DNA of 64,000 nucleotides from Eledone cirrhosa (taxonomy: Eukaryota). The position numbers and the translations under genes are program-made. The notes below the pieces were generated by a model. It was given only the letters and a program-made list of their open reading frames with translations, did no database searches and was not told the DNA's origin. Of this stretch, positions 12,947-57,749 are shown piece by piece. The stretch spans positions 397,358,001-397,422,000 of the forward strand of contig OZ024740.1 in assembly GCA_964016885.1 (NCBI GenBank). The letters run 5' to 3'. How positions within the stretch are numbered: position 1 is the first letter of the stretch; the number at the start of each line of letters is the position of its first letter.

Positions 12947-13975
12947 ATTGAAACAAAATGAAAACGAAATTTCATTTCTCACTCTTAGTATGGCACTTAC
13001 TTAAATGTAAGTATGCATGTATACGTACATACATATATGTATACAGACGTACAGTAGCATGCACATATATATATATATATACATATATATATACATATGC
13101 ATACAGGTACACATACATATATGCACGTATCAGTTTAGCGGCGCTAACGTCGCTTTGTTCGTTTGTAAACAAACTGAACAGCCTGAATTTATGCCATACG
13201 GTGTTAAGGCAACCACGTCACCTTTTTGTTCAACACTGATAGCTAACAAGCTTGAAACTAGTACATCGTTCCTGTGTCAGTGTTGAACAAAAAGGTGACG
13301 TGGTTGCCTTAACACCGTATGGCATAAATTCAGGCTGTTCAGTTTGTTTACAAACGAACAAAGCGACGTTAGCGCCGCTAAACTGATACGTGCATATATG
13401 TATGTGTACCTGTATGCATATGTATATATATATGTATATATATATATATATGTGCATGCTACTGTACGTCTGTATACATATATGTATGTACGTATACATG
13501 CATACTTACATTTAAGTAAGTGCCATACTAAGAGTGAGAAATGAAATTTCGTTTTCATTTTGTTTCAATTTATCGTTTTCGGTATGCCTGACCGATTTAA
13601 CTCACTCAATATGCAAATTAGGCTGCTCAGCCGTTAATTTTCATAAGGAAAGTATATACTTTCGAACATTCAACTATCTGGCAGATGGGTAAACGGTGCT
13701 GATGATAGCTAACAAGCTTGAAACTAGTACATCGTTCCTGTGTCAGTGTTGAACAAAAAGGTGACGTGGTTGCCTTAACACCGTATGGCATAAATTCAGG
13801 CTGTTCAGTTTGTTTACAAACGAACAAAGCGACGTTAGCGCCGCTAAACTGATACGTGCATATATGTATGTGTACCTGTATGCATATGTATATATATATG
13901 TATATATATATATATATGTGCATGCTACTGTACGTCTGTATACATATATGTATGTACGTATACATGCATACTTAT
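12947..13975 (+). mobile_element. Family B HHR mini-element: 293-bp inverted repeat plus 466-bp head-to-tail repeat, inside (TA)n
   Basis: Arms 12947-13239 and 13277-13569 (mirror ORFs in the track are identical), with a 37-nt spacer. 13240-13506 repeats at offset 466. Confidence 0.9.
13692..13736 (+). ncRNA. Type-I hammerhead ribozyme, family B
   Basis: AACGGTG-CTGATGA-TAGCTAACAAGCTT-GAAA-CTAG-TA-CATCGTT. 7-bp stem I, palindromic ACTAGT, GUA site after 13729. Confidence 0.85.
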
Positions 13976-14439
13976 ATATATATATATATATATATACATA
14001 CTCACACACAGAGAAAGAGGGAGAGAAAGAGAGAAAGCAAGAGATTGATGCATAGATATTGGTAAAGATGTAAATATTTATTATACTGACTATGGTATTA
14101 TTTAAGTACAATTGTTTCATGAGGCATCTCTTTCAGATTTTCACTGATACAAACTCCATTCAACCCTTCAGACTATATTGATGCAATTTTGTAATGGTTC
14201 TGTTCTTTTGCTTCAAATGTGAAAGAATTCCAAAAGAAAAGTGTTTTAGATATAGTGAGTGTTAAAAGAAAAGCAATAGAGGCAATTTTGTAGTTGATAA
14301 GACAGATAGATGAAGATACTCTACAAAAATTAAAAAGAGCTAACTTTTGGAAGATCCATGTATAGGGTAAAAGAATAAAAAAAAATTGTAATTCTAGAGT
14401 GTCCATGTGAAAGTTGTTAGATATCAGTTGACTTAAAAA

Positions 14440-17851: not shown

Positions 17852-17877
17852 TATATATATATATATATATATATATA

Positions 17878-18020
17878 TTTCGTTTCTGAATTTGTTTAGC
17901 AAGATTCTTTATCTGAAATCGTGTGTTGAAACCGATATTGTTATACTTTGGGAGGGTCATGTTGCCAATAAGAAACTGGTGCGTGTGTTTCTTATTGGCA
18001 ACATGACCCTCCCAAAGTAT

Positions 18021-18028
<8 letters not shown>
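17878..18028 (-). mobile_element. Minimal family A fold-back insertion
   Basis: Perfect 42-bp arms 17935-17976 / 17987-18028, tail 17878-17934, (TA)n on both sides. Confidence 0.85.
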
Positions 18029-18053
<25 letters not shown>

Positions 18054-18598
18054 ACCCATGCTAGCATGGAAGATAGACGTTAAATGATGATGATGATGAT
18101 GATACATATATATATATAGGGTGTTCCCCAAAAATGTATACATACATCAACAGCATTCTAATGAATATTGCCTGTACAGGTAATCAAAGTATGTATACAT
18201 TTTTGGGGGATACTATTTTGGGGGGATATATATCATCATCATCATCATCATTTTACGTCCGCTTTTCCCTGCTTGCAAGGGTGGGATGGGAACTGATTCT
18301 GGCTTGATTTCTACAGCTGGATGCCCTTCCTAACACCAACCCCATTTACAGTGAGTGCTGGGTGCTTTTTTTGCCGTGGCACCTCCACGACCACTTTGCA
18401 GTGGAATGATAGGGACTCCAGTCCTATCATCTCATTTGTACAGCTGAGTAAACTGGAGCAATATGAAATAAAGTGTCTTGCTCAAGGACACAACACATTA
18501 CCCGGTCTGAGAATTGAACTCACAACCTTTTGATTGCAAGGCCAATGCTCTAACCACTAAACCATATATATATATATACACACACAGACATATATGTA

Positions 18599-18678
<80 letters not shown>

Positions 18679-18689
18679 AATAGTAATAA

Positions 18690-18905
18690 TAATAAAATTG
18701 AAGACTAAAATCCAAAGAGGGCTGGATAAGGAAAATATATATCAAATATATAAGAACCGTAGAGCAAATATTTATTAAAATAACAGATTTTTTGAAATAT
18801 CCAGTTCTGCGTTTACAGATTGACTTTGTTAGTTTCAGAAGATCCCGTTAAGGGTGAAAGCAGCGATTCTTTGCTTAAACTTTAATCTGTTATTTTAATA
18901 AATAT
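18690..18905. mobile_element. Family F fold-back mini-element
   Basis: Homologous to 37232-37550; inverted junction near 18789; flanked by TA/TAA repeats. Confidence 0.75.
18831..18881 (+). ncRNA. Variant type-I hammerhead, family F (CAGAAGA core)
   Basis: AGTTT-CAGAAGA-TCCCGTTAAGGGT-GAAA-GCAGCGATTCTTTGC-TT-AAACT. All three stems form; the core has U4A. Confidence 0.6.
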
Positions 18906-18930
18906 ATATATATATAATATATATATATAT

Positions 18931-19480
18931 ATATTGTTATGCTTTGGGAGGGTCATGTTGCCAATAAGAAACACACGCACCAGTTCCTTTCACTCCAATT
19001 TATTATAAGTTAAATTTATAAATTTCCGGTTGATTGGTTGGTTCCACAACCGGACGGTTGTTCATATATTGTCAAAGTTCTTTCGTCACACATTCTGTGA
19101 CCTCTTCAGTGACTGGGGATTTTTTTCTTTTCACCCGGATGTAACACATGCGCAAACTAAGCACACAACACACACAAAAAAAATAAGATGGCGTAGGACA
19201 GAACAAAGGAGAGGCACAAAAACAAAGAAAAGAATCCCCAGTCACTGAAGAGGTCACAGAATGTGTGACGAAAGAACTTTGACAATATATGAACAACCGT
19301 CCGGTTGTGGAACCAACCAACCAACCGGAAATTTATAAATTTAACTTATAATAAATTGGACTGAAGGCAACTGGTGCATGTGTTTCTTATTGGCAACATG
19401 ACCCTCCTAAAGCATAACAATATCGGTTTCAACACACGTTTTCAGATAAAGAATCTTGCTAAACAAATTCAGAAACGAAA
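18931..19480 (+). mobile_element. Family A fold-back element with an HHR on each strand
   Basis: About 200-bp arms 18931-19130 / 19224-19423, 57-nt tail 19424-19480, (TA)n flanks. HHRs at 19071-19113 (-) and 19241-19283 (+). Confidence 0.9.
19241..19283 (+). ncRNA. Minimal type-I hammerhead, family A
   Basis: GTCA-CTGAAGA-GGTCACAGAATGTGTGAC-GAAA-GAAC-TT-TGAC. Other copies at 19071-19113 (-), 19701-19743 (-), 32136-32178 (+) and 37882-37924 (+). Confidence 0.7.
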
Positions 19481-19488
19481 TATATATA

Positions 19489-19548
<60 letters not shown>

Positions 19549-19554
<6 letters not shown>

Positions 19555-19897
19555 ACGCTTTGGGAGGGTCATGTTGCCAATAAGAAACACACGCACCAGT
19601 TGCTTTCACTTCAATTTATTATAATAAATTTATAAATTTAAGAATTTATAAATTTCCGGTTGGTTGGTTGGTTCCACAACCAGATGGTTGTTTATATATT
19701 GTCAAATTTCTTTCGTCACACATTCTGTGACCTCTTCAGTGACTGGGGATTCTTTTCTTTGTTTTTGTGCCTCTCCTTTGTTCTGTCCTACGCCATTCTG
19801 TCCTACGCCATTTTGTTTCTGTGTGTCACACAGAAACAAAATGGCGTAGGACAGAACAAAGGTGCGTGTGTTTCTTATTGGCAACATGACCCTCCCA
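19549..19897. mobile_element. Rearranged family A copy
   Basis: The inverted arm starts at the same fixed site. Internal hairpin and duplication at 19778-19860; joined directly to a family B copy. Confidence 0.8.
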
Positions 19898-20373
19898 TAC
19901 TACTGTACGTCTGTATGCATATATGTATGTACGTATACATACTTATATTTAACTAACAGCTGAACTAAGAGTGAGAAATGAAATTTCGTTTCATTTTTTT
20001 TTGTTTATCGTTTTCGGTGCGCCCGGCCGATTAACTCACTCGATATCAAATTAGGCTGCTCAGCTGTTAATATGCATAAGGAAAGTATATACTTTCAGAC
20101 GTTCAATCATCTGGCAGGAAGGTATACGGTGCTGACGATAGCTAATAAGCTTGAAACTAGTACATCGTTCCTTTGTCAGTGTTGAATAAAAGGGCAACGA
20201 TGGTTGGTAAATACTCTACGGCTTAATTCGGGATGTTTGTTTACAAACACCCCGAGCATTATAATAAATGTTCGGTGAATCCATATGTACATATATATAT
20301 ATATGTGTGCATGTATGTATATATATACATACTACTGTACGTCTGTATACATATATGTATGTACGTATACATA

Positions 20374-20380
<7 letters not shown>
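19898..20380 (+). mobile_element. Diverged family B copy (about 1.1 units) with HHR at 20126-20168
   Basis: ACGGTG-CTGACGA-TAGCTAATAAGCTT-GAAA-CTAG-TA-CATCGT. The terminal segment CATACTACTGTACGTCTGTAT occurs at both ends. Confidence 0.8.
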
Positions 20381-20454
<74 letters not shown>

Positions 20455-22545: not shown

Positions 22546-22886
22546 ATCTGAAATCTCATCTGATTTGTAACTGGATTGACATTGATAACTCAACCGCCTT
22601 GAACTCCTTCTCTGCTCTTTACTTCTACTACGGTTTTTTTTACCTGCTGAATCCACGTTCTGTACTCTTGTATTCTCTTTCTCCCTTATCTCCCTTTATA
22701 TTTAACCTTTTCCTATGTCATTTCCCCCCCCCCCTCCTTTTCTCCCCTATTTGTTTGCCTTACTCTTCACATACCAAAATTTTTTTTATTTTTAGATATT
22801 AATTTTTTATATAATGGTTTTGTGTGTTTTTATATAATAGCCTCAGAAAAGGCTTGAGCTCTGCCGTAGGGTCAGGCTTTTTCCTA

Positions 22887-22922
<36 letters not shown>

Positions 22923-25320: not shown

Positions 25321-27412
25321 ATGGACCTTTATGAATTGGATTATTCAATCAAAAATATACCTACTCCTTCCAACACAACTTATACCAAAATGCTTATAGA
25401 TAAAATCGAACAAGTCGTTAAAAGAATGAGATGAAGGCAATGGTTTACGATGGACTATTCAGTGCTGATACTAATGATTGTTTTGACATAAAATCCCGTA
25501 AATATCCACCTATAATTAAAGACATGGCCAACTTCGAATTAGACTTTGTTAATTTAATTAGTGATATCAAATTTCGTAAGTACAATAATAACTTTCAAAC
25601 TAAACTGTCTAACGATATTTCTAATTTTAGAAATTCTACAAACACCTTTGTTCTTTCTGATAAAACTAAAAATCTCTTTGAAGTTAATAGTACTTTGTAT
25701 AACCAACTTTTAACTAATAGTATCACCAACAAATATCAATTAACTAATAATAATACAATACTATTAATAAAGAAGCTAAAGAACTAGCTAGTTCTTTAAA
25801 AATAGACAACCGGATTGAAAGCCTAGCTAAGCGTAAAGCATATATTACCCTTAAAGACCATAAATTAGACTTTACTAATCGACCTAGTTGTAGACTGATT
25901 AACCCGGCTAAATCCTAAGTTGGCCTTGCAAGTAAAAAAATCTTAAGAAAAATAATTCCCCAAATTAGAACTAACACTGACCTATCACAGTGGCTAAATA
26001 CTTCCTCTGTTATTTCTTGGTTTAATAATATACAAGGTAAAAATAAGTGTAGATTTGCCCAATTTGATATTGTTGATTTTTACCCCTCTATTATTGTTTC
26101 CTTATTAACTAATGCCTTAGATTTTGCAAGACCCTTCATTAATATTTCTAAATTAGAAGAAGACATTATCTTTCATGTTAGAAAAACTTTACTCTTTACT
26201 AATGAAAATATTTGGGTTAAAAAGTCAAACCCTGAAAACTCTTTTGATGTTGCAATGGGTTCATATGACAGTGCGGATGTGTGTGACTTAGTAGGATTAT
26301 TCCTTCTCCACACCCTCAAAGAGAAGTTTCCTTCCCATAATATCGGTTTATACCGTGATGACGGATTGGCAGTTTCTCATACCACCAACGGCCTTGATAA
26401 ATTCCGTAAAGATTTAATCAATACTTTTGCTAATCTTAACCTTAAAATCACTATAGATACGAACCTTACCAATGCTAACTTTCTTGATATTAATCTTGAT
26501 CTACTTACCGCCTCTTTTAAACCTTATCATAAACCTAATGAAAATCTTAGGTATATACACAAAGAGTCTTGCCATCCTCCTATATTTTTTAATAATCTTA
26601 TTCCCAACATTAGCCGTAGGATTTTTACCTTATCTTCGTCTATAGACATTTTTAATAAAGCCGCCCCTTATTATAATAAAGCCCTTAAGAATTTACAGAA
26701 AAAACTCCCCCCCCCCCCCAAAAAAAAACTAACCACAATAACAGGAAAAGGAATATTATTTGGTTCACACACCCCTTCTCTCTAACTGTCAAAACTAATG
26801 TAGGAAGGAAATTCCTTGAACTCTTAGATAAACATTTTCCTCCTAATCATAGATATTATAAGATATTTAATAGGAACATAGTTAAGATCAGTTACTCTTG
26901 TTGCCCATCTATGAAGTCCACGATCACTAATTCAAATCATACGAGAACAAATCCAGGATGCAGTTGCAGGAAGCCGGATGAATGCCCATTGCAGGGCAAA
27001 TGTAACACCAAATCTGTTGTTTATGAGGCTAAAATAACACCTTTAATCAACAACCAGCCAGCCAGGAGTGAGCGATATGTCGGCATGACCCAGGACAGGT
27101 TTAAAACCAGGTTTTATCACATGTCGCTTCTTTTAAGCCCTCCGATAAACGAACAACAACGGCCCTCGCAAGTAAGGTGTAGGAATTCAAGGATAATAAC
27201 ATACCGTACTCTATCTATTGGTCTATTTTAGACCATTCGAGGGAGTACCAAAGGGGCACAAAGAATTGTTCTTTGTGTACCACAGAAAAATATAGGATTT
27301 TGCTAAACTTGAAAGCCACTTCTGCTTGCCTGAACTCAAAGACCGAGATCTTCAGATATTGTCCTCATCTGAAATCTCATCTGATCTGTAACTGGATTGA
27401 CATTCCTATGAT
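25321..27412 (+). pseudogene. PLE polyprotein (RT + Cys linker + GIY-YIG), frameshifted
   Basis: MDLYELDYSIKNIP...KRMR, LKDHK, FDIVDFYPSI, MGSYDSADVCDLVG, GLYRDDGL, CSCRKPDECPLQGKC, VVYEAKI...YVGMT, CSLCTTEK. Several stops and frameshifts. Confidence 0.9.
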
Positions 27413-27709
27413 AACTCAACCGCCTTGAACTCCTTCTCTGCTCTTTACTTCTACTACGGTTTTTTTACCTGCTGAATCCACGTTCTGTACTCTTGTGTTC
27501 TCTTTCTCCCTTATCTCCCCTTATATTTAACCTTTTCCTATGTCATTTTCTCCCCCCTCCTTTTCCCCCCTGTTTTTTTGCCTTACCCTTCACATACCAA
27601 AATTTTATTTATTTTTAGATATTAATTTTATATATAATGGTTTTGTGTGTTTTTATATAATAGCCTCAGATAAGGCTTGAGCTCTGCCGTAGGGTCAGGC
27701 TTTTTCCTA

Positions 27710-27812
<103 letters not shown>

Positions 27813-31704: not shown

Positions 31705-32328
31705 ATTTTAGCATGTTGGTAGAGTACAGAAAAAAAAGATAAAAAGAATCATATGTACTCTACCAACATGCTAAAATAGAACATAAGGGTAAATTAGAGA
31801 ACATAGAAATAAAAATAGAATCTACACACAGAAAAGACGCAATGTTTAGACAAATCACAGAGGCAATAAACATAAATGAACTCCAACCAAAATTAAATAG
31901 AAAACATGAATGGAACAGCAACAACTTACAATTAAGGACAAAATGAAAACACACACGCACATAGAACAAACAACCAACCAGTAACATGTAAATAAACAAA
32001 TAAATAAACAAATATAAACACACACAGACACCCGGACGTAACACATGCGCAAACTAAGCACACAACACACACAAAAACAAGATGGCGTAGGACAGAACAA
32101 AGGAGAGGTACAAAAAACAAAGAAAAGAATCCCCAGTCACTGAAGAGGTCACAAAATGTGTGACGAAAGAACTTTGACAATATATAAACAATCATCTGGT
32201 TGTGGAACCAACTAACCAATCGGAAATTTATAAATTCCTAAATTTATAAATTTATTATAATAAATTGAAGTGAAAGCAACTGGTGCGTGTGTTTCTTATT
32301 AGCAACATGACCCTCCCAAAGTATAACA

Positions 32329-32330
<2 letters not shown>
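31705..32330 (+). mobile_element. 3' end of the family A parent PLE (GIY-YIG C-terminus, 3'UTR, HHR) with a 24-bp 5' inversion
   Basis: 'VLYQHAKIEHKGKLENIEIKIESTHRKDAMFRQITEAININELQPKLNRKHEWN' is homologous to ORF 55778-56077. 31705-31728 is the inverse of 31754-31777. Confidence 0.85.
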
Positions 32331-32410
<80 letters not shown>

Positions 32411-32453
32411 ATATATATATATATGTATATATATATATGTATATATATATATG

Positions 32454-32568
<115 letters not shown>

Positions 32569-32610
32569 GTGTGTATATGTATATATATATATGTATATAT
32601 GTATATATAT

Positions 32611-32860
32611 ATTGTTATACTTTGGGAGGGTCATGTTGCCAATAAGAAACACACGCACCAGTTGCTTTCACTTCAATTTATTATAATAAATTTATAAATT
32701 TATAAATTTAGGAATTTATAAATTTCTGGTTGGTTGGTTGGTTGGTTCCACAACCAGATAGTTGTTTTATTGGCAACATGACCCTCCCAAAGTATAACAA
32801 TATCGGTTACAACACACGATTTCAGATAAAGAATCTTGCTAAACAAATTCAGAAACGAAA
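32611..32860 (+). mobile_element. Family A fold-back insertion
   Basis: Inverted arm from the fixed site, short sense arm, full 57-nt tail, long TA tracts on both sides. Confidence 0.85.
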
Positions 32861-32892
32861 TATATATATATATATATATATGTGTATATATG

Positions 32893-32927
<35 letters not shown>

Positions 32928-32928
32928 G

Positions 32929-32983
<55 letters not shown>

Positions 32984-32984
32984 G

Positions 32985-33015
<31 letters not shown>

Positions 33016-36913: not shown

Positions 36914-37231
36914 TGTTTTCCTACTATAACAAGTGTTAAACTATAGACAGTCAAATCGAACTGAGAAAACAATGTTTCCGTTGGTGTTTCCAATTGATAA
37001 TACTAGCTATCGGTCGCAACTCCAGATGGAAAGAGAAACGTGAAGTAAAGTGCCTTGCTCAAGGACATAACGCATCGCCCAGTACAGGAATTGAACTCAC
37101 AACCTCACCAAATGTGAATCCAATTCTCTTAGCACTCATCCATGTGCCTTCCAATTATATATTTCTTAATTGCACTGTGTTGTTTGCTTTGTTGTTTCCA
37201 TTAACTTTTCGCGTATATATATATATATATA

Positions 37232-37550
37232 TATTTATTAAAATAACAGATTAAAGTTTAAGCAAAGAATCGCTGCTTTCACCCTTAACGGGATCTTCTG
37301 AAACTAACAAAGTCAATCTGTAAACGCAGAAGTGGATATTTCAAAAAACGTTGCAACCGGAGGAAGACAGGAAGACGATACTTTGGTTCGTGGAAACGTT
37401 CCCTGTCAAAGAACAGCAGCGATTCTTTGCTTAAACTTTAATCTGTTATTTTAATAAATATTTGCTCTACGGTTCTGATATATTTGATATATATTTATCC
37501 TTATCGAGCCCTCTTTGGATTTTAGTTTTCTAATTTATTATTATTACTAT
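37232..37550. mobile_element. Family F fold-back copy with HHR at 37255-37305 (-)
   Basis: 37232-37276 is inverted relative to 37416-37461; same CAGAAGA core as 18831. Confidence 0.75.
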
Positions 37551-37565
37551 ATATATATATATATA

Positions 37566-38398
37566 TTTCGTTACTGAATTTGTTTAGCAAGATTCTTTAT
37601 CTGAAAACGTGTGTTGAAACCGATATTGTTATGCTTTGGGAGGGTCATGTTGCCAATAAGAAACACACGCACCAGTTGCTTTCACTCCAATTTATTATAA
37701 ATTAAATTTATAAATTTAAGAATTTATAAATTTCCGGTTGGTTGGTTGGTTGGTTCCATAACCGGATTGTTGTTCATATATTGTCAAAGTTCTTTCGTCA
37801 CACATTTGTTCTGTCCTACGCCATCTTGTATGGCGTAGGACAGAACAAAGGAGAGGCACAAAACAAAGAAAAGAATCCCCAGTCACTGAAGAGGTCACAG
37901 AATGTGTGATGAAAGAACTTTGACAATATATGAACAACCATCCGGTTATGGAACCAACCAACCAACCGGAAATTTATAAATTCTTAAATTTATAAATTTA
38001 ATTTATAATAAATTGGAGTGAAAGCAACATGACCCTCCCAAAGCATAACAATATATCCCACCACCCCACCCCATCCACACCACCCCTTTCGATGTAAAGT
38101 TATGTTGGTACCACAACATCCAGTCCGAAATAAATGAGGTCGTGTAGGTGTCACAACAAAAAAACGCACAGTCCACGCTGTAATGTGTGACGAAAGAACT
38201 TTGACAATATATGAACAACCATCCTGTTGTGGAACCAGCCAACCAACCGGAAATTTATAAAATTTATAATAAATTGAAGTGAAAGCAACTGGTGCATGTG
38301 TTTCTCATTGGCAACATGACCCTCCCAAAGTATAACAATATCGGTTTCAACCCACATTTTCAGATAAAGAATCTTGCTAAACAAATTCAGAAACGAAA
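37566..38398. mobile_element. Two family A insertions plus a captured RTE 3'UTR piece
   Basis: 37566-38054 is a fold-back with the tail on the left. 38056-38187 is an RTE 3'UTR fragment fused at AATGTG to a family A 3' end running to 38398. Confidence 0.8.
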
Positions 38399-38455
38399 TA
38401 TATATGTATATATATATACATATATATACATATATATATATACATATATATATAC

Positions 38456-38529
<74 letters not shown>

Positions 38530-38554
38530 ATATATACATATATATATATATATA

Positions 38555-40620
38555 TCATCATCATCATCGTTTAACGTCTAATCTTCCACGCTAGCATGGG
38601 TTTAGACGGGAATTGTCCCACTTGAGGCAAGATTGGTTGTCTCGCTCGTATGGGACTGTCTGACGGCTAGATGCCCTTCCTAACACCAACCACATTTACA
38701 GTGTGGACTGGGAGGTTTTTACCGTGTTACCTACACGGCCACATTACAGCGTGGACTGTGTGTCTTTTTGTCGTGACACCTACACGACCTCATTTGTTTC
38801 GAGCTAGATGTTGTGGTACCAACATAACTTTACAGAGAAAGGGGTGGTGTGGGTGGGGTGGAGGTGGTGGGACGGGGGGTGTGTTTTGATAGATATGCCT
38901 ACTGACTGTAGTAGGTTTTTACTTTGTATTTAGGTAAGGTGGGGGGGGGGGGGTTGAGGTAGTGGGATGGGGTGTACATTTGGTTAAGAGGTGCCTACTG
39001 ACTGTAGGTTACGCTTTGTACATAGGCAAGACGGGTCTTCTGTATTACTGCATAGCGCCAAAGATCTCGGTCCAGTGACATTGTCTTAGAGAGGGGTAAG
39101 TGTGAAAGGTTGGAATTTATCAAATCGTCCCAGGTTTTTATGGGTCTGCCTACTCTATAACTTCCATCAATTTTGATCGCTCTGCACTTTTTTATACAGC
39201 TGTTGTCTTTCATGCGCATCACGTGACCATACCAACATAGTCTTCTCTCGAGTAAACAGCATCTGATTCCTCTTATTCCTAATTTCTCACTTAGTTCATT
39301 TATGCTTTGCTGTTCACGTATATTACTATTACACATCCAACGGAGCATGCAAGCTTCATTCCTCTCCAGTCTGCGTATATCCTCTGTACACAATGCCCAG
39401 GTCTCACTGTCATGTAACATTGCTGTTCGTATGCAGGCATTATACAGTCTGCCTTTCATTTTTAGAGAGAAACCTTTAGTGGCCAATATTGGTATAAGCT
39501 CTCTGAACTTTTTCCATCCCGTTCTGACTCTGGCTACTGTACTTTCAGAGCACCCTCCACCACTGCTGATTTTGTCACCCAGGTAACGGAAGGTATCCAC
39601 TATTTCTATAGAACCATCTGGGCAATAGAAGGAGCTAGTATCCTGTGGTCACTTGCTACCTATTGCACCTGAGCACCGGCGACATATAAAATCTACGTTC
39701 TTGGATAGCTTACCTGTGATCCCACTATATCTTTTATGCACCCATACTTAGCATTTGGGACATAAAATGGAATTTCTGCCTACTCCTTTCCTACACATTG
39801 AGCATGGCCATTTCCCAGAGACACCTGTGCCCTATTTTCCTTCCTACATACTAGAACTTTAGTCTTAGACAAGTTAACTTTAAGGCCTTTTGATTCTAGG
39901 CCATACTTCCATGTTTGGAATTTCTTCTCTAGTTCAGCCATCGATTCAACTATGAGCGTTAGATCATCTGCATATAGAAGTTCCCATGGGCAGCCGGTCT
40001 TGAACTCCTCTGTTATAGCCTGAAGGGCAATAATAAATAGGAGGGGGCTAAGTACGGAGCCCTGATGAACACCAACTTATACGCTAAATTCTTCACTATA
40101 TTCGTTGTTGATTCTAACCTTGCTGACTGTTTTTTATACATGGCTTGTATAGCTCTCACAAGCCATTCATCGACACCTAGTGTTATAAGAGCCCACCAGA
40201 TAATGGTGCGGGGAACTCTGTCAAAAGCTTTCTCCAAATCAACAAAAGCTAAGTATACTTTTAGCTAGGTACTTCTCCTGTAGTTGTCGTACAAGGAAAA
40301 GTGTGTCTGTGGTACTTTTACCTGACACAAACCCAAATTGCATTTCATCTAGATCAATTCGCTCTCTGATTAGTTGCGCTATAACTTTTTCTTGGACCTT
40401 CATGATCTGGTCAATTAATTTAATGCCTTTATAGTTTCCCCTATCTAGGGCATCTCCTTTACCCTTGAGGCAGTTAATGATGATGCTGCTACGCCAGTCA
40501 TTTCGTATGACGCCATTCTGTATGACTTGGTTTACTATCTGGGTGACCATAGTGTGTCCCACCATTCCTGATTGTTTCAGCATTTCAGCAACTATCTCCG
40601 AAGGCCCAGCTGCCTTGTCT
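38555..40620 (-). mobile_element. 5'-truncated RTE LINE, copy 3 (composite 3'UTR)
   Basis: ORFs 40239-40583, 40013-40237 and 38995-39600. The stop-proximal segment is duplicated (38895-38943 vs 38990-39035); TA flanks. Confidence 0.9.
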
Positions 40621-50920: not shown

Positions 50921-51927
50921 ATCTCCTGGAGTTTTCCTCTAATAATGTTTGAGACAAGCAAACACAATTGCAACATTGCTGTAGTGAAAGCAAGGCTATG
51001 ACTCTATAACCAAGCACCTTTATAGGTGTCACCTGATACATTGGTAAGACAAGCCACCAACAATGACAAGAACATCGTTGTCAACAGCCCAGCAACCATA
51101 AAATGTCATGATCACCACAAGTTGAAAATATAGTTTATTGACAATTACTGATATTGCAATGTTATGTAAGCATTTGTAAAATTTACATAATGTTGGTGAT
51201 CAAAACGACTGTGGAATGGAATAATTTAATAAATGAACTAAAATTTCATATATTTGTCATTGTTACACATATAGATAGATAGGTAAACAGTTAGATAGAT
51301 ATACTTAGATACATTCATACACATGCACACACTCACACATGTGAACATACACATTTACACTTACATAAAAACATACATACATACACACATACATACATAG
51401 GTGTTCAAATAAAAGATATATGTAGGAAGTTTTCAATCTGTTATAACATACAACATGAAAGATATCCAAGTACAGTTATGATATAGCAATTATATATGGC
51501 TGCTTGAAACATGTAAAATTAATTTGATGATTGGAGAATAAAGACAACATAGCAATAACATGAAATAACACAGGCACATACAAGCACACCTACATTTATT
51601 TATATATATATATATATCATCATCATCATCATCATCATCACCATTTTACGTCCGTTCTTCCATGCTAGCATGGGTTAGACGGGTTGTCCTGTTGTGGGCA
51701 GTGTCTGGTCGGCTGACCATGCCTTGCTCATATAGGAACTGATTTTAGCTTGATTTCTACAGCTAGATGCCCTTCCTAACACCAACCTCATTTACAGTGA
51801 GTGCTGGGTGCTTTTTCCGTGGCGCCTACACGTCCACTTTACAGTGTGGGCTGGGTGCTTTTTTGCCTTGGCACCTCCACGACCACCTTGCAGTGGGAGG
51901 GTGTGGGGGCATGGGGGCATATATATA

Positions 51928-51956
<29 letters not shown>

Positions 51957-51959
<3 letters not shown>

Positions 51960-53100
51960 AGAGACGTAAGATAAGAAAATTATAAAATTAACTTACTTAC
52001 TAAAATATCACTTCCAACTAATTAGTTTCTGGAATGGAGTAGATACATCTTCCGAAGAAGGTGTTGAGAAACATCCCGTCATCAGGAAAGTCAATTCTCA
52101 TATAAGTTCCAGGCAAAGCGAGGACACTGGAAGCTTATTAAAAATAAATCAGTGAATAGGAAATAGCAAAGCGTGGACTTACTTCCTAGCCATTGAGAAA
52201 ATCACTGCCTCTGTGTCTGTGGCAAATTCAAAAAGAATCGAACACATGACAATGAGGTCAATCGGTGGAAAGTGGGTTGTTAATAAGACAGCGGCTAGCC
52301 TGCTACCGTAGCAGCAGTCATGGCCAGTATTGCTCAACAAATATTTTGGAGATAATAATAAAGAATTTATATCTAGTAACATATATATATACATACAAAT
52401 GCATATCGATACTAGCAAATATATAGGTTTTGTCTTAGTAACATTGTGGTTCAATGCATGGGGTTGCAGAACAATAATATAAGAGACGTAAGATAAGAAA
52501 ATTATAAAATTAACTTACTTACTAAAATATCACTTCCAACTAATTAGTTTCTGGAATGGAGTAGATACATCTTCCGAAGAAGGTGTAGAGAAACATCCCG
52601 TCATCAGGAAAGTCAATTCTCATATAAGTTCCAGGCAAAGCCGCTGTCTTATTAACAACCCACTTTCCACCGATTGACCTCGTTGTCACGTGTTCGATTC
52701 TTTTTGAATTTGCCACAGACACAGAGGCAGTGATTTTCTCAATGGCTAGGAAGTAAGTCCACGCTTTGCTATTTCCTATTCACTGATTTATTTTTAATAA
52801 GCTTCCAGTGTCCTCGCTTTGCCTGGAACTTATATGAGAATTGACTTTCCTGATGATGGGATGTTTCTCAACACCTTCTTCGGAAGATGTATCTACTCCA
52901 TTCCAGAAACTAATTAGTTGGAAGTGATATTTTAGTAAGTAAGTTAATTTTATAATTTTCTTATCTTACGTCTCTTATATTATTGTTCTGCAATCCCATG
53001 CATTGAACCACAATGTTATTAAGACAAAACCTATATATTTGCTAGCATCGATATGCATTTGTATGTATATATATGTTACTAGATATAAATTCTTTATTAT
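51957..53100 (-). mobile_element. Family H mini-element: 522-bp tandem unit plus inverted arm, three HHRs
   Basis: 51957-52119 repeats at offset 522. 52640-53100 is inverted. HHRs at 52010-52091 (-), 52532-52613 (-) and 52844-52925 (+). Confidence 0.9.
52844..52925 (+). ncRNA. Type-I hammerhead ribozyme, family H, extended stem II capped by a cUUCGg loop
   Basis: ACTTTC-CTGATGA-TGGGATG...CTTC(TTCG)GAAG...CATTCCA-GAAA-CTAATTAG-TT-GGAAGT. Confidence 0.85.
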
Positions 53101-53190
53101 TTATTATATATATATATATATATATATATCCCAAGGCTCTGATACCATCAACACTATAAACACAGAGCTGGCATATCTAAGAACTGACTA

Positions 53191-53246: not shown

Positions 53247-54029
53247 AAATAAAGGATTATGAGTTCATACAATTGACTTATGTTTCGTCACTATATATAT
53301 ATATATATATATAGTTATACTTGGGGAGGGTCATATTTGTGTAATATTGCCAGAATTAATAACAGAACACACTCACTGTTTGGTTGGTTTTCGCTTTTCG
53401 CTTTTCGCTTCTGTGTCTTTTATATCGGTAATCTAATTTATTCGGTCCTCAATGTTGCCATTGACTGACCAACGGTCAAAAATAATACAGATATAATATA
53501 GACACAAACACATATATATAGTTTATCAAAGTTCTTTCGTTGCACATCTGCAACATCGTCAGTGGTGCTATTGTTTCCTCCCGTTACATTGTATGTCTAC
53601 GCCATCTTTATTTAGTCTGTTTATATATTCTTTGTGCATGCGTTTGCGTGTGTGTATAGTGTTTTGTTTGATGTGTGTTCGTGATTGGGTGACTGTGTAT
53701 TGGTTAATGTATTCTATCTTTACTAGTGTGTGTTTATATGTGTTTGTTGTTATTGTGCTTGTGTATGTATTTATTTATTTATTTATCTATTTATTTATTT
53801 ATTTATATTTCTCTTAGGTCAGTGTTGTTTGTTTGGGTGTTGTTGTTATTCCATTCATTCTTTCTGTTTAGTCTTGGCCTTCTAAGTTCTATTTCACTGG
53901 CCTCTCTGATTTGCCTATCTGCTGGGTCATTTCTATGTTTAGATATTATTCTAATTTCTATGTTGTCTATGTTACCATCGTGTTGTTGTCTGGCATGTTC
54001 GTATAGTACTGACCCATTTTTTCGTCCTT

Positions 54030-55550
54030 TTAGTTCCCCCAGTGTTGGTCTATCCTTTCACCTATGCTACAAGCTGTCTCGCCTATGTATGTTGTTGTCA
54101 TGTTTCTGCAAGTACCCTCTGTACATCTTATGCTATAGACTACGTTTCTAGTTTTACAGTTTATCCGGGGGTTTACCTTACATATGATACATTTCCTATT
54201 AGTACAGTGGGTTTTCTTAAAAGGGTAGGTTTTGCTGATCAGGGATTTTATGGTGGTTCCTGGCTTTTCTACCACCTTAATCTTTAAATGGGTCTTTCTC
54301 AGGGCCTTTCTACACTGGTTAGCTAATTTCCCTCCAGGGGTAGCGTCCACAAACATGACACTCTGGTATCTCTGATTGTCGTACCATGAGGTGGCTTTCC
54401 CTATCTTATGTCTAGCCCTATCTAAGCTATTCCATGATTTGCTCCTGTATAATGGGCAAATTCCTTTCATGTCCAGTTCTATGAGGGTCTTATACTTCTC
54501 CATGGCTCCTTCGTATACTCTGACTCTGTCTCTTTGGTTGTAGCCAGAGAACTGCATGCGGTTGATGAAGTGTTGGATGTGTCTTTCCATTTCTGTTGGG
54601 TCGTACATGCAGGACACATTCTTCATCACTCGTACCAAATCTGCGATCAGAATATTAAACTTAGCACTACTGGACATTGCTGAGTTTTTGAGTATCAGGT
54701 ATTTGGAGGCCATGGGTTTAGCATAGTGTGAGTGGAGAATTTGGGCTCTCTCGTCTATAGTGTTAATCCAGAGTTCCGTGTCTAATACAGGTAGTCTATT
54801 GTTAGGGTGTTTGGAAGGGTAGTCGATAGTTACAGTTATACTCTGGTGTATGGAATTAGCTATCTGCTGGATGCTTTCCATTGTGCTATGTTCTAAATAA
54901 AACTTGTTAGTGCTCTCTAGTGGGGATGTTCTTATAACTATATTGATATCGTCTACATAACGAGAGTACATGATGAGGTCTATGGAGCTCTCATTAAGGA
55001 GATCTTTAAATCTCCTTTCCCACCATACCATAAAAAGGTTGGCAACATCACCAGCTATGCTGACGCCAATGGCTGCTCCCTCATTTTGGGTGTAGGTCTT
55101 CTCGTTGAACTTGAATATGTGGCTCTTTAGGGTAGTTTTGATACTAGCCCCTATTGCATGTGCGACCATTTTTCTTACCTGATCATTGTTTTGGGGGGTC
55201 CGTATAGCTTTCGTCCACCCAATCCACCTTCCCATGGGAGTCTTTTTTGCCATTGAGGTTATGGTGGGGGGTCTACCTGTTATGGGTCTACTAGGGCAGA
55301 AACGTCTAAGGTCATGGCTGTCTAGGTAGTTAGTGTCGTAGGTAAGTCTAAGTAGGAGGCCCAGTTCATCTGTGTCGACGTCGCAGAACTCCACCTCACT
55401 CTCAATGATCATCTCCACACATTTTTCCACAGCAAAATCAATGTTAATGGATGGGTACAGTGATACCACATCCATGCTGCCTATTATGCAGTTGGATAGG
55501 TTCCTGTTTTTGTTGCACTCACTGATTCTGCTGAGGAGGTCCTCTGTACT
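54030..55550 (-). pseudogene. 5'-truncated PLE RT + GIY-YIG endonuclease
   Basis: STEDLL...SMDVVSLYPSI, GAAIG..IAGDVANLFM, YSRYVDD, LPVLD, Cys linker, NVVYSIRC...YIGET. A 1-bp G-run deletion near 54035 truncates it; the intact C-terminus is seen at 55778-56077. Confidence 0.9.
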
Positions 55551-56314
55551 GTGTAGAAAACCAGTGTAGAAAGGCCCTGAGAAAGACCCACTTAAAGATT
55601 AAGGTGGTAGAAAAGCCAGGAACCACCATAAAATCCCTGATCAGCAAAACCTACCCTTTTAAGAAAACCCACTGTACTAATAGGAAATGTATCATATGTA
55701 AGGTAAACCCCCGGATAAACTGAAAAACTAGAAACGTAGTCTATAGCATAAGATGTACAGAGGGTACTTGCAGAAACATGACAACAACATACATAGGCGA
55801 GACAGCTCGTAGCATAGGTGAAAGGATAGACCAACACTGGGGGGAGCTAAAAGGACGAAAAAACGGGTCAGTACTATACGAACATGCCAGACAACAACAC
55901 GACGGTAACATAGACAACATAGAAATTAGAATAATATCTAAACATAGAAATGACCCAGCAGATAAGCAAATCAGAGAGGCCAGTGAAATAGAACTTAGAA
56001 GGCCAAGACTAAACAGAAAGAATGAATGGAATAACAACAACACCCAAACAAATAACACTGACCTAAGAGAAGTATAAATAAATAAATAAATAGATAAATA
56101 AATAAATAAATACATACACAAGCACAATAACAACAAACACATATAAACACACACTAGTAAAGATAGAATACATTAACCAATACACAGTCACCCAATCACG
56201 AACACACACGCAAACGCATGCGCAAAGAAGACAAAATAAAATAAATAAATAAATATATAAACAGACTAAATAAAGATGGCGTAGACATACAATATAACAG
56301 GAGGAAACAATAGC

Positions 56315-56356
56315 ACCACTGACGATGTTGCAGATGTGCAACGAAAGAACTTTGAT
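56315..56356 (+). ncRNA. Minimal hammerhead, family A-related subfamily
   Basis: ACCA-CTGACGA-TGTTGCAGATGTGCAAC-GAAA-GAAC-TT-TGAT. Weak stem I; stem II covaries with family A. Confidence 0.65.
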
Positions 56357-57749
56357 AAACTATATATATGTGTTTGTGTCTATATTGTATCTGTATTATT
56401 TTTGACCATTGGTCAGTCAATGGCAACATTGAGGACCGAATAAATTAGATTACCGATATAAAAGACACAGAAGCGAAAAGCGAAAAGCGAAAACCAACCA
56501 AACAGTGAGTGTGTTCTGTTATTAATTCTGGCAATATTACACAAATATGACCCTCCCCAAGTATAACAATATTTGTTTCGACACACAATTTCATATAAAA
56601 AACCTTGCAAAACTATATATATATATATATATATATATACAGATAGATATAGATATAGAAATATGTACCTTAGTAGCTGGAAAAGTGGATGTTAAAATGT
56701 TAATGATGACAATGATGATGATGTATATATATATAGAAACGTATTGTATAGAATGGTGAACTCAAAACAAAAACAGAATGTCTTGAACATAACACAAGAA
56801 AAATACTGAATCCATATGAGCATGATGTGGTCTCCACACCTGACTTGTCACATAATGTGACAACTCATATGACCCATGCAAGCATGGAAAAATAAGCATT
56901 ACATGATGATGATGATGATGATGATACATATAAATATATATACTTACATATATGTTTATTGCATATAAACATATAGTACATGCTTTCATATACACCCCTA
57001 ATATCATCATCATCATTATCACTGTTTTACGTCAATGTCTCCACGCTAGCATGGGTTAGATTGGTTGTCCTGTTGTGGGCAATGCCAGGTCAGGTGACCA
57101 TGTCTTGCTCATACAGGAACTGATTTGGGCTTGATTTCTACAGCTGGATGCCCTTCCTAACACCATCCTCATTTACAGTGAGTACTGGGTGCTTTTTTGT
57201 TGCGAGACCTCCACGACCTCTTTGTACTGGGAGCATATTGTCTATATGCTTCAGCTTCGGCTTGTACCCATGGGGGGGGGGGTCTTCTGTATTACTGCAT
57301 GACATGTATGGAAATCGACTAGAGTCTATGTAGATGAGGAAGGAACGTAGTGAGTGAAGAGAAGCTGTGCTGAGAAGAACCCATCCACTCATGGAAGTTG
57401 AAGTATAATTTATAATTTTAAAACTGATGATAGGAAACAAAATATATATTCATATTTTTGTGTTTCTTTATGCCTTTTATTAAAATGACGTTTTACTGAA
57501 TGACATGTCATTCATTACTTTTAAAAACAAATAAGAAATAAACATCTATTAAGAACATTTGTTAAATGATGTTTTCACAGAAATAATAATCATAGACTCT
57601 TTTGATGAATATGATGGTGTATTTGCTTTTTAATTAACAAAGATAGAATATCATATCATGGAATTGAGATATAATAGAAATGGCATTTAATCAATACCGC
57701 AAAAATGGAGAAGAGTTCAACAAGCCTGAGACATTATGTTGCTATGAGT

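Follow-up and report, generated by a model that had tools for sequence, protein, structure and literature searches.

The locus

The window, by which we mean the whole 64,000-nt stretch of DNA analysed here, lies on contig C1 of a 3.0-Gb animal genome, presumably of a cephalopod judging by the repeats, in which TA microsatellites and retroelements are abundant. Within it, two arms of a 522-nt repeat meet head to head between two (TA)n tracts. In unit numbering, position 1 is the base that directly follows the predicted hammerhead cut.

51919..51959: (TA)n target tract, short-end side
51955..52641, minus strand: arm 1, 687 nt or 1.3 units, from unit position 419 through one full unit to about 61
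52016..52537, minus strand: full monomer of 522 nt, from predicted cut to predicted cut
52639..52641: head-to-head (5' to 5') junction of the arms, a 3-nt overlap
52639..53101, plus strand: arm 2, inverted, 463 nt, from unit position 242 over the cut site to about 183
52981..53101, plus strand: tail of about 122 nt, from one 3' end to the other
53105..53129: (TA)n target tract, long-end side

The minus arm is composed of unit positions 419-522, 1-522 and 1-61 and finishes at the short 3' end; the plus arm, composed of positions 242-522 and 1-183, finishes at the long 3' end. These two ends are presumably the sites at which reverse transcription started. A preliminary description of this DNA had reported a 522-nt unit, present as 1.3 units on the minus strand and in an inverted arm that crosses the unit junction without a break, and all of this is borne out. 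What it missed is the main point, namely that an inverted arm, two fixed 3' ends and (TA)n together form the signature of a Penelope-like element (PLE). Because overlapping stretches of the arms differ at so few bases (3/342, 1/165 and 3/146), the insertion is young.

No conserved coding frame was recognised in the monomer at 52016..52537. Of its plus-strand frames, one is interrupted by just 4 stops in 174 codons; in the sense direction, one frame stays open over about 110 codons. Two short motifs recur across the 61 distinct monomers of the family described below:

52685..52692, plus strand: box GTCACGTG, kept in 55 of 61 monomers
52513..52523, minus strand: splice-donor-like AGTAAGT(AAGT), directly after the predicted cut, kept in 58 of 61 monomers

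The box, which we take to be an E-box, is altered to GTCATGTG in arm 1 (52250-52243) and has a putative promoter role. An acceptor-like stretch with CACTGA, a T-rich tract and one of two AG lies at about unit positions 385-411 (window ~52153-52127, minus strand), and subfamilies lacking one AG mostly retain the other. A search with one pattern for genomic copies spliced between that donor and the acceptor (near 404-411) gave 0 matches.

A large gene-less family

An exact search of the genome for the core plus palindrome (CTGAYGA-N41-70-GAAACTAATTAGTT) found 10,647 matches, more than chance would give, since the reversed control pattern found 0; the pattern of the window's own subfamily has 218. 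Clustering of the 61 distinct cut-to-cut monomers from the fetched loci (478-571 nt), in which a few pairs lacked a long alignment, gave 20 clusters that are 67-92% alike over their full length. Among the roughly 190 family loci examined, a PLE frame leading into the ribozyme was found in none, one nested case aside. The family is also present in contigs from three runs of one sample, with TA loose ends at the short end; these contigs are uninformative on ends or cleavage and are not independent support. Our search of the literature, with Repbase, Dfam and some supplements outside its scope, returned no description of the 522-nt family or of any cephalopod retrozyme.

A duplicated block at G000:C1:349.32-349.39 Mb has a period of about 12.4 kb and carries a 522-nt element in each repeat. 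Another locus (L032 1281-2096, at G000:C2:141.48 Mb) consists of tandem 215-nt subunits, made of positions 404-522 and 1-96 with a hammerhead in each, which could derive either from a deletion followed by duplication or from a smaller circle. A GT-AG splice was rejected as the origin of the subunit junction, which is not GT-AG.

The hammerhead motif and its conservation

52010..52091, minus strand: hammerhead copy A, predicted cut between 52016 and 52015
52091-52086 with 52015-52010, minus strand: stem I of copy A
52085-52079, minus strand: CUGAUGA of copy A, followed by an extra C at 52078
52077-52072 with 52036-52031, minus strand: stem II of copy A, followed by an extra A at 52030
52049..52060, minus strand: inner CUUC(UUCG)GAAG hairpin of copy A, carried by the extended stem II
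52066..52099, minus strand: predicted pairing of GAGAA (52099-52095) with UUCUC (52070-52066)
52532..52613, minus strand: hammerhead copy B, predicted cut between 52538 and 52537
52844..52925, plus strand: hammerhead copy C, with a T variant that gives a 7-bp stem II, predicted cut between 52919 and 52920

In copy A the extra A is followed by GAAA, the palindromic stem III and GUU. As first described, all three copies have a 6-bp stem I (ACUUUC/GGAAGU, with one G-U), the palindrome ACUAAUUAGU, the GUU site and the CUUC(UUCG)GAAG hairpin. The "three ribozymes" of that description are three hammerhead copies at the locus, but there is one per 522-nt unit and not three; likewise, its 7-bp stem II is found in the plus arm only (C to T), whereas both minus copies have 6 bp.

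The motif has the features of a type I hammerhead, with CUGANGA and GAAA boxes, an NUH site, stems I-III and G10.1-C11.1. It departs from the consensus in the extra C and extra A around stem II and in the GUU site; Rfam models gave no hammerhead match at gathering and E-value thresholds, and for the 96-nt motif alone the ribozyme fold is not the minimum-energy fold (z -0.4 to -0.9). Self-cleavage at GUU is predicted. GAGAA, upstream of stem I, and UUCUC, in the internal loop of stem II, may form a pseudoknot or an alternative, competing fold, and one subfamily has GAAAA with UUUUC in their place. The departures are widely shared: of 190 distinct sequences from the family, 183 have a C opposite A next to the 6-bp stem II and 187 the GUU site, counts in which the search pattern had fixed these letters at some of the loci.

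Across 190 distinct full-length motifs the six pairs of stem II are 96-99% paired, the second pair varying between G-C, A-U, U-A and C-G, and the G-C base pair of that stem is present in 182. Eighteen chosen representatives are paired in 98.7% of 396 cells, with 30 compensatory cells, against 40-57% in slid controls; their stem II is 100% paired, with 21 compensatory cells. The shuffle control for covariation is inflated by the relatedness of the sequences. Compensatory changes among subfamilies also occur in the inner hairpin, and changes in stem I are one-sided only. The tetraloop is cUUCGg in 126 and UNCG in 171 of the 190 motifs, a sample enriched for two subfamilies used as search queries, and several subfamilies replace cUUCGg. 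Conservation of the UUCG hairpin and stems among copies had been put forward as a check: the stems are kept, stem II with covariation, but the tetraloop sequence varies as stated. Agreement of near copies says little because they are 96-99% identical. Selection on RNA structure, which the preliminary description had read from the tetraloop, is supported by covariation between subfamilies, the tetraloop alone being insufficient.

The structure extends beyond the hammerhead. Folded as a circle, as had been suggested, 7/7 monomers do better than shuffles (z -3.0 to -8.6), and in 7/7 the sense strand folds more stably than the reverse. An alignment fold of 15 monomers has helices with compensatory pairs spread over the unit and leaves both 3'-end sites unpaired. 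One predicted long-range helix (52279..52442, minus strand, pairing 52442-52431 with 52290-52279, unit positions 96-107/248-259) brackets the long start site and shows 2 compensatory pairs.

Two 3' ends in TA repeats

The 127 loci analysed here follow genome order in the lists of core-pattern and subfamily-pattern matches; of the duplicated region at C1:349 Mb, three loci were kept. Of their 234 arms, 91 end at unit positions 54-68, 111 at 174-196 and 32 elsewhere, so that arm ends have two fixed points in (TA)n, about 60 and about 183 nt after the cut site; TA or CT repeats adjoin 190 of the 202 canonical ends. The 89 head-to-head pairs comprise 65 with a short and a long end, 2 with two long ends, 0 with two short ends and 22 with a non-standard end. 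Where both ends are canonical, the short+long combination accounts for 65/67 pairs (p=1.5e-17). At most head-to-head junctions the two arms share 0-6 nt. Probably both strands of the break served as primers, each at one of the two sites.

Partial tandems, an inverted 5'-truncated copy, a one-ended tail and (TA)n targets are given as hallmarks of PLEs in the available part of PMC8557442. In vitro, a PLE cuts both strands, and reverse transcription begins at two internal sites, with the tail lying between them (PMC11167929). The 522-nt family shows partial tandems, 5' truncation and an inverted 5' copy, a tail at one end only (65/67 pairs), and an AT-rich or (TA)n target with no discernible target duplication. 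From this signature of pseudo-LTRs and tail it follows that the 522-nt repeat is likely a non-autonomous Penelope-like element, or non-LTR retrozyme.

Candidate partner and related repeats

A young, active Hydra-type PLE with open frames of 927-928 aa is present in the genome in many near-identical copies (intact frames at L294 3980-6763 and L295 4049-6835, both on the minus strand). Its assignment to this type rests on the motifs RWK, DKT and CxCX5C, which the available part of PMC8557442 gives for the Hydra clade. This PLE has a hammerhead-like core with U3-A8 and a tail of about 160 nt, and its ends lie 60 and about 220 nt beyond the cut site of that hammerhead-like motif; in 5/5 distinct loci where both inverted ends were scored the combination is short+long. 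Compared with it, the tail of the 522-nt family (14 subfamily representatives) gives local z scores of -1.7 to 3.1 and global z scores of 1.5-2.2, with no profile match. Since tail similarity is not significant, the Hydra-type PLE is a candidate partner by geometry only. An 11-mer after the cut and a 10-mer in the tail that both have in common were discarded as not significant against shuffles.

Comparison with the Hydra-type family, with the PLE next to the locus and with two other families of the window gave no 3'-end homology to an autonomous PLE, nor was an autonomous PLE found that bears the hammerhead of the 522-nt family. One locus (L066), in which a family copy is joined to an ORF, was considered as the autonomous parent and rejected: the joined copy is a nested insertion with that PLE's own 3' end at the junction, and 0 of 29 other copies of that PLE match the 522-nt family.

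A sister family of 483 nt (1,462 matches) has a long stem II with a canonical core and a GUA site, and forms arrays of up to 9 units (L078, L079, L143, L166, L168; G000:C1:82116722-82120611). It is distantly homologous, with profile E values of 2e-4 to 8e-3 for 2/3 loci. A third cut site is reached by 7/18 of its two-site arms (first 100 matches) compared with 3/50 in the 522-nt family (p=0.002). The more canonical ribozyme may thus go with longer arrays, which is a lead to pursue, and local duplication could also account for the difference. Further hammerhead repeats with a long stem II occur at four loci (L086, L173, L286, L234). Flank-to-loop complementarity of their own, 5-7 bp long, is present in 3/4 other long-stem motifs, motifs J and K173 having only 4.

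The window holds other repeats of related kind. A PLE fragment, presumably Neptune, adjoins the locus at 53309-56572. It has a 522-aa frame (54030-55598, minus strand) with a weak RT match, inverted terminal repeats and hammerhead motifs of its own (53562, 56319); its 3' ends in (TA)n are of a short and a long kind. Other short repeats that contain hammerhead motifs lie in TA tracts at 13002-14000, 19896-20400, 17852-19800, 32029-33015 and 37231-38555; the repeat type at 17.8-19.8 kb has its stem III and 3'-end sequence in common with the PLE fragment. At 25919-27745 there is a frameshifted PLE of Hydra-like type, whose 3' part is repeated inverted at 22546-22922.

Linear or circular template

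At least two cut sites are present in 50/185 arms, which makes these arms non-coding tandems with a hammerhead in at least two consecutive units. The multimeric or circular template first proposed holds in so far as the template was longer than a unit, but a circle as the main route is disfavoured by the rates at which arms stop. These were measured on 196 canonical-end arms, with subfamilies pooled and search-selected arms entering only after the core. Over the first full unit (455-61) the stop rate is about 0.09 per 50 nt (range 0.07-0.13). Within 60 nt of the upstream cut (1-60), 23/72 arms stop where 11% would be expected (p=2e-6), 16 of the 23 within positions 1-32; the rate is 0.27 per 50 nt at 1-60 and then 0.25-0.33 past the upstream cut. 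Positions 381-455 stop 22/160 arms in round one versus 16/32 in round two (p=2e-5), and among 105 unselected arms stops at 1-60 number 9/93 on the first approach versus 12/27 on the second. Arms stop about 3-4 times more often near the second cut site, the first being crossed freely.

If a circle had a barrier after one round, long-end arms should stop more often at 183, and no such rise was seen there (11/44, or 0.12 per 50 nt at 62-183, compared with 0.128 per 50 nt in short-end arms). With a fitted change point, the linear model is only about 5 log-likelihood units better than a barrier after one round of a circle, and its advantage is about 10 units without the 3 longest arms. Successive units diverge by 1.98% and the two arms by 1.92%, an equality that fits a circle and a young array alike and does not separate them. 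Three arms span 2.8-4 units. The helix 96-107/248-259 requires sequence past 183 and is therefore out of reach of a last unit with the long end, a point in favour of a circle or of a longer array. Weighing the stop-rate tests against divergence, long arms and helix, we favour a linear RNA of 1.5-2 units as the template of most copies and give circles about one chance in four. DNA alone does not tell cleavage from a transcription start as the source of the 5' ends.

Origin of the locus and alternative explanations

In our preferred reading, to which we assign a probability of about 0.65, the locus is a recent copy of a gene-less 522-nt repeat, likely a non-autonomous PLE, pasted by a borrowed PLE enzyme from a mainly linear template. 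Partial-tandem copies would give a transcript of about 1.5-2 units, and the PLE endonuclease would cut both strands in (TA)n. Each 3' end could then pair with one unpaired UA-rich site of the RNA, about 60 or 183 nt after the last cut site, and so prime cDNA. The two cDNAs would halt randomly or near the RNA 5' end and be joined by 0-6 nt of microhomology. The RNA 5' end itself would lie near the upstream hammerhead, either through partial self-cleavage or through a local start site, and the rare arms of 3-4 units may derive from circles or long arrays. Against this reading count the missing autonomous PLE with a shared hammerhead, the non-consensus core and a motif whose energy fold is not a hammerhead. 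Moreover, published PLE hammerheads often cleave poorly (PMC11167929 and the available parts of bioRxiv 10.64898/2026.07.22.740005 and PMC4209133).

The same element could instead have been copied, over more than one round, mainly from a 522-nt circle or from a cleaved monomer whose ends stem I keeps together. Circles have been shown for coral, mussel and axolotl retrozymes (PMC7229834, available part), and a circle would suit the seamless unit junction, a unit-to-unit divergence not above that between arms, the 3 arms of 2.8-4 units and the 9-unit arrays of the sister family, as well as a monomer that is structured throughout, with its ends closed by stem I and a covarying helix that needs positions 96-259 together. 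We nonetheless find this rather doubtful, given that only 3/50 arms with two cut sites reach a third, that the stop rate at equal positions differs by round, and that long-end arms meet no barrier after one full round. A satellite or a DNA-level mobile repeat (unequal crossing-over, MITE, Helitron-like) with a ribozyme-like motif by chance is very improbable: the dispersal of the loci, the combination of fixed 3' and random 5' ends, the short+long rule, folding that is specific to one strand, and the compensatory changes all speak against it, and this reading is largely refuted even though some copies do lie in local duplications (the C1:349.3-349.4 Mb array).

A different possibility, somewhat unlikely in our judgement, concerns the role of the ribozyme. 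The hammerhead might be weak or protein-dependent, its structure being kept mainly so that the PLE enzyme can recognise it as a scaffold, and 5' ends might pile up at transcription starts and not through self-cleavage. Indeed, the non-consensus core is retained (C/A in 183/190 and GUU in 187/190, the letters being pattern-fixed at some loci), at least one site is left uncut in most templates, a PLE hammerhead of Anolis cuts only with protein and is dispensable for insertion (PMC11167929), and 8/9 Xenopus dimers gave no cleavage in the available part of bioRxiv 10.64898/2026.07.22.740005. On the other hand, positions 1-32 account for 16 of the 23 stops in the 1-60 range, and the core, G10.1-C11.1, stem I, the palindromic stem III and a covarying stem II are kept in subfamilies up to 33% apart. 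Such a scaffold can also be compatible with the non-autonomous PLE that we prefer. That preferred reading has a more far-reaching form, which we offer as speculation: a long-lived, gene-less RNA lineage of more than 10,000 copies might live on Hydra-clade PLEs, with strict two-site priming on both strands, an in vivo footprint of hammerhead cleavage and ribozyme speed deciding whether the template is linear or circular. Equally speculative parts of it are a pseudoknotted hammerhead with a tuned-down core and a canonical-core sister that forms rolling-circle arrays.

Comparison with known systems

Metazoan non-LTR retrozymes, as described in the available parts of PMC7229834 and bioRxiv 10.64898/2026.07.22.740005, are likewise non-coding tandem repeats of low GC content, in which each unit carries one type I hammerhead, and have thousands of copies; their dependence on PLEs has been proposed, and our unit length lies inside their reported 51-972 bp. 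Unlike them, the 522-nt family mostly has 0.3-1.9 units per arm in head-to-head pairs and not long arrays, two fixed 3' ends in (TA)n and a long branched stem II; a circle is disfavoured as its main template. A plant LTR retrozyme was rejected on account of the type I topology and the lack of LTR structure: LTR retrozymes have a type III hammerhead in their LTRs, a primer site, a polypurine tract and a 4-bp duplication (bioRxiv 10.64898/2026.07.22.740005, available part).

With PLE pseudo-LTRs and non-autonomous PLEs such as Chlamydomonas MRC1, as presented in the available part of PMC8557442, the family has in common the partial tandems, 5' truncation, inverted 5' copy, one-ended tail and microsatellite target. 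Its tail is about 122 nt, whereas theirs are 30-40 nt, and it differs from the non-autonomous PLEs described there in that no ORF-bearing parent or 3'-end homology was found and in that, while being a gene-less unit, its lineage has diverged to identities as low as 67%. Poseidon of Anolis carolinensis (PMC11167929) also has a tail bounded by two internal start sites with a hammerhead upstream of them, and AT-rich DNA cut on both strands. Poseidon, however, is autonomous and primes without target homology, while here both start sites are UA-rich and able to pair with (TA)n.

The ribozyme resembles the PLE hammerhead variants in the available part of PMC4209133, which are type I with a long stem II, an unpaired base between A9 and G10.1, a G10.1-C11.1 pair and a palindromic stem III suited to dimers. 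It departs from them in a second unpaired A before GAAA, the GUU site and a 49-nt stem II insert with an internal loop and a hairpin that ends in UNCG; a further difference is that Watson-Crick pairing with its 5' flank is predicted. Pseudoknots between stem I and stem II are given for about 40% of hammerheads in the available part of PMC3088659.

The literature searched showed no precedent for the size of the lineage, its long tail, its ribozyme variant or the strict rule by which ends are paired; the class (non-autonomous PLE or non-LTR retrozyme) is known and the variant is unusual. How PLEs make tandem and inverted insertions, what role their hammerheads play and whether circular RNA is the vehicle of animal retrozymes are stated as open in four papers, in the parts available (PMC8557442, PMC11167929, PMC4209133, PMC7229834). 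The family provides thousands of dated natural products of the PLE insertion reaction, and the short+long rule (65/67) together with the round-dependent stops turns those open questions into countable tests. Finally, the 522-nt family and its sister form a natural pair, one with a divergent and one with a canonical ribozyme, for assay.
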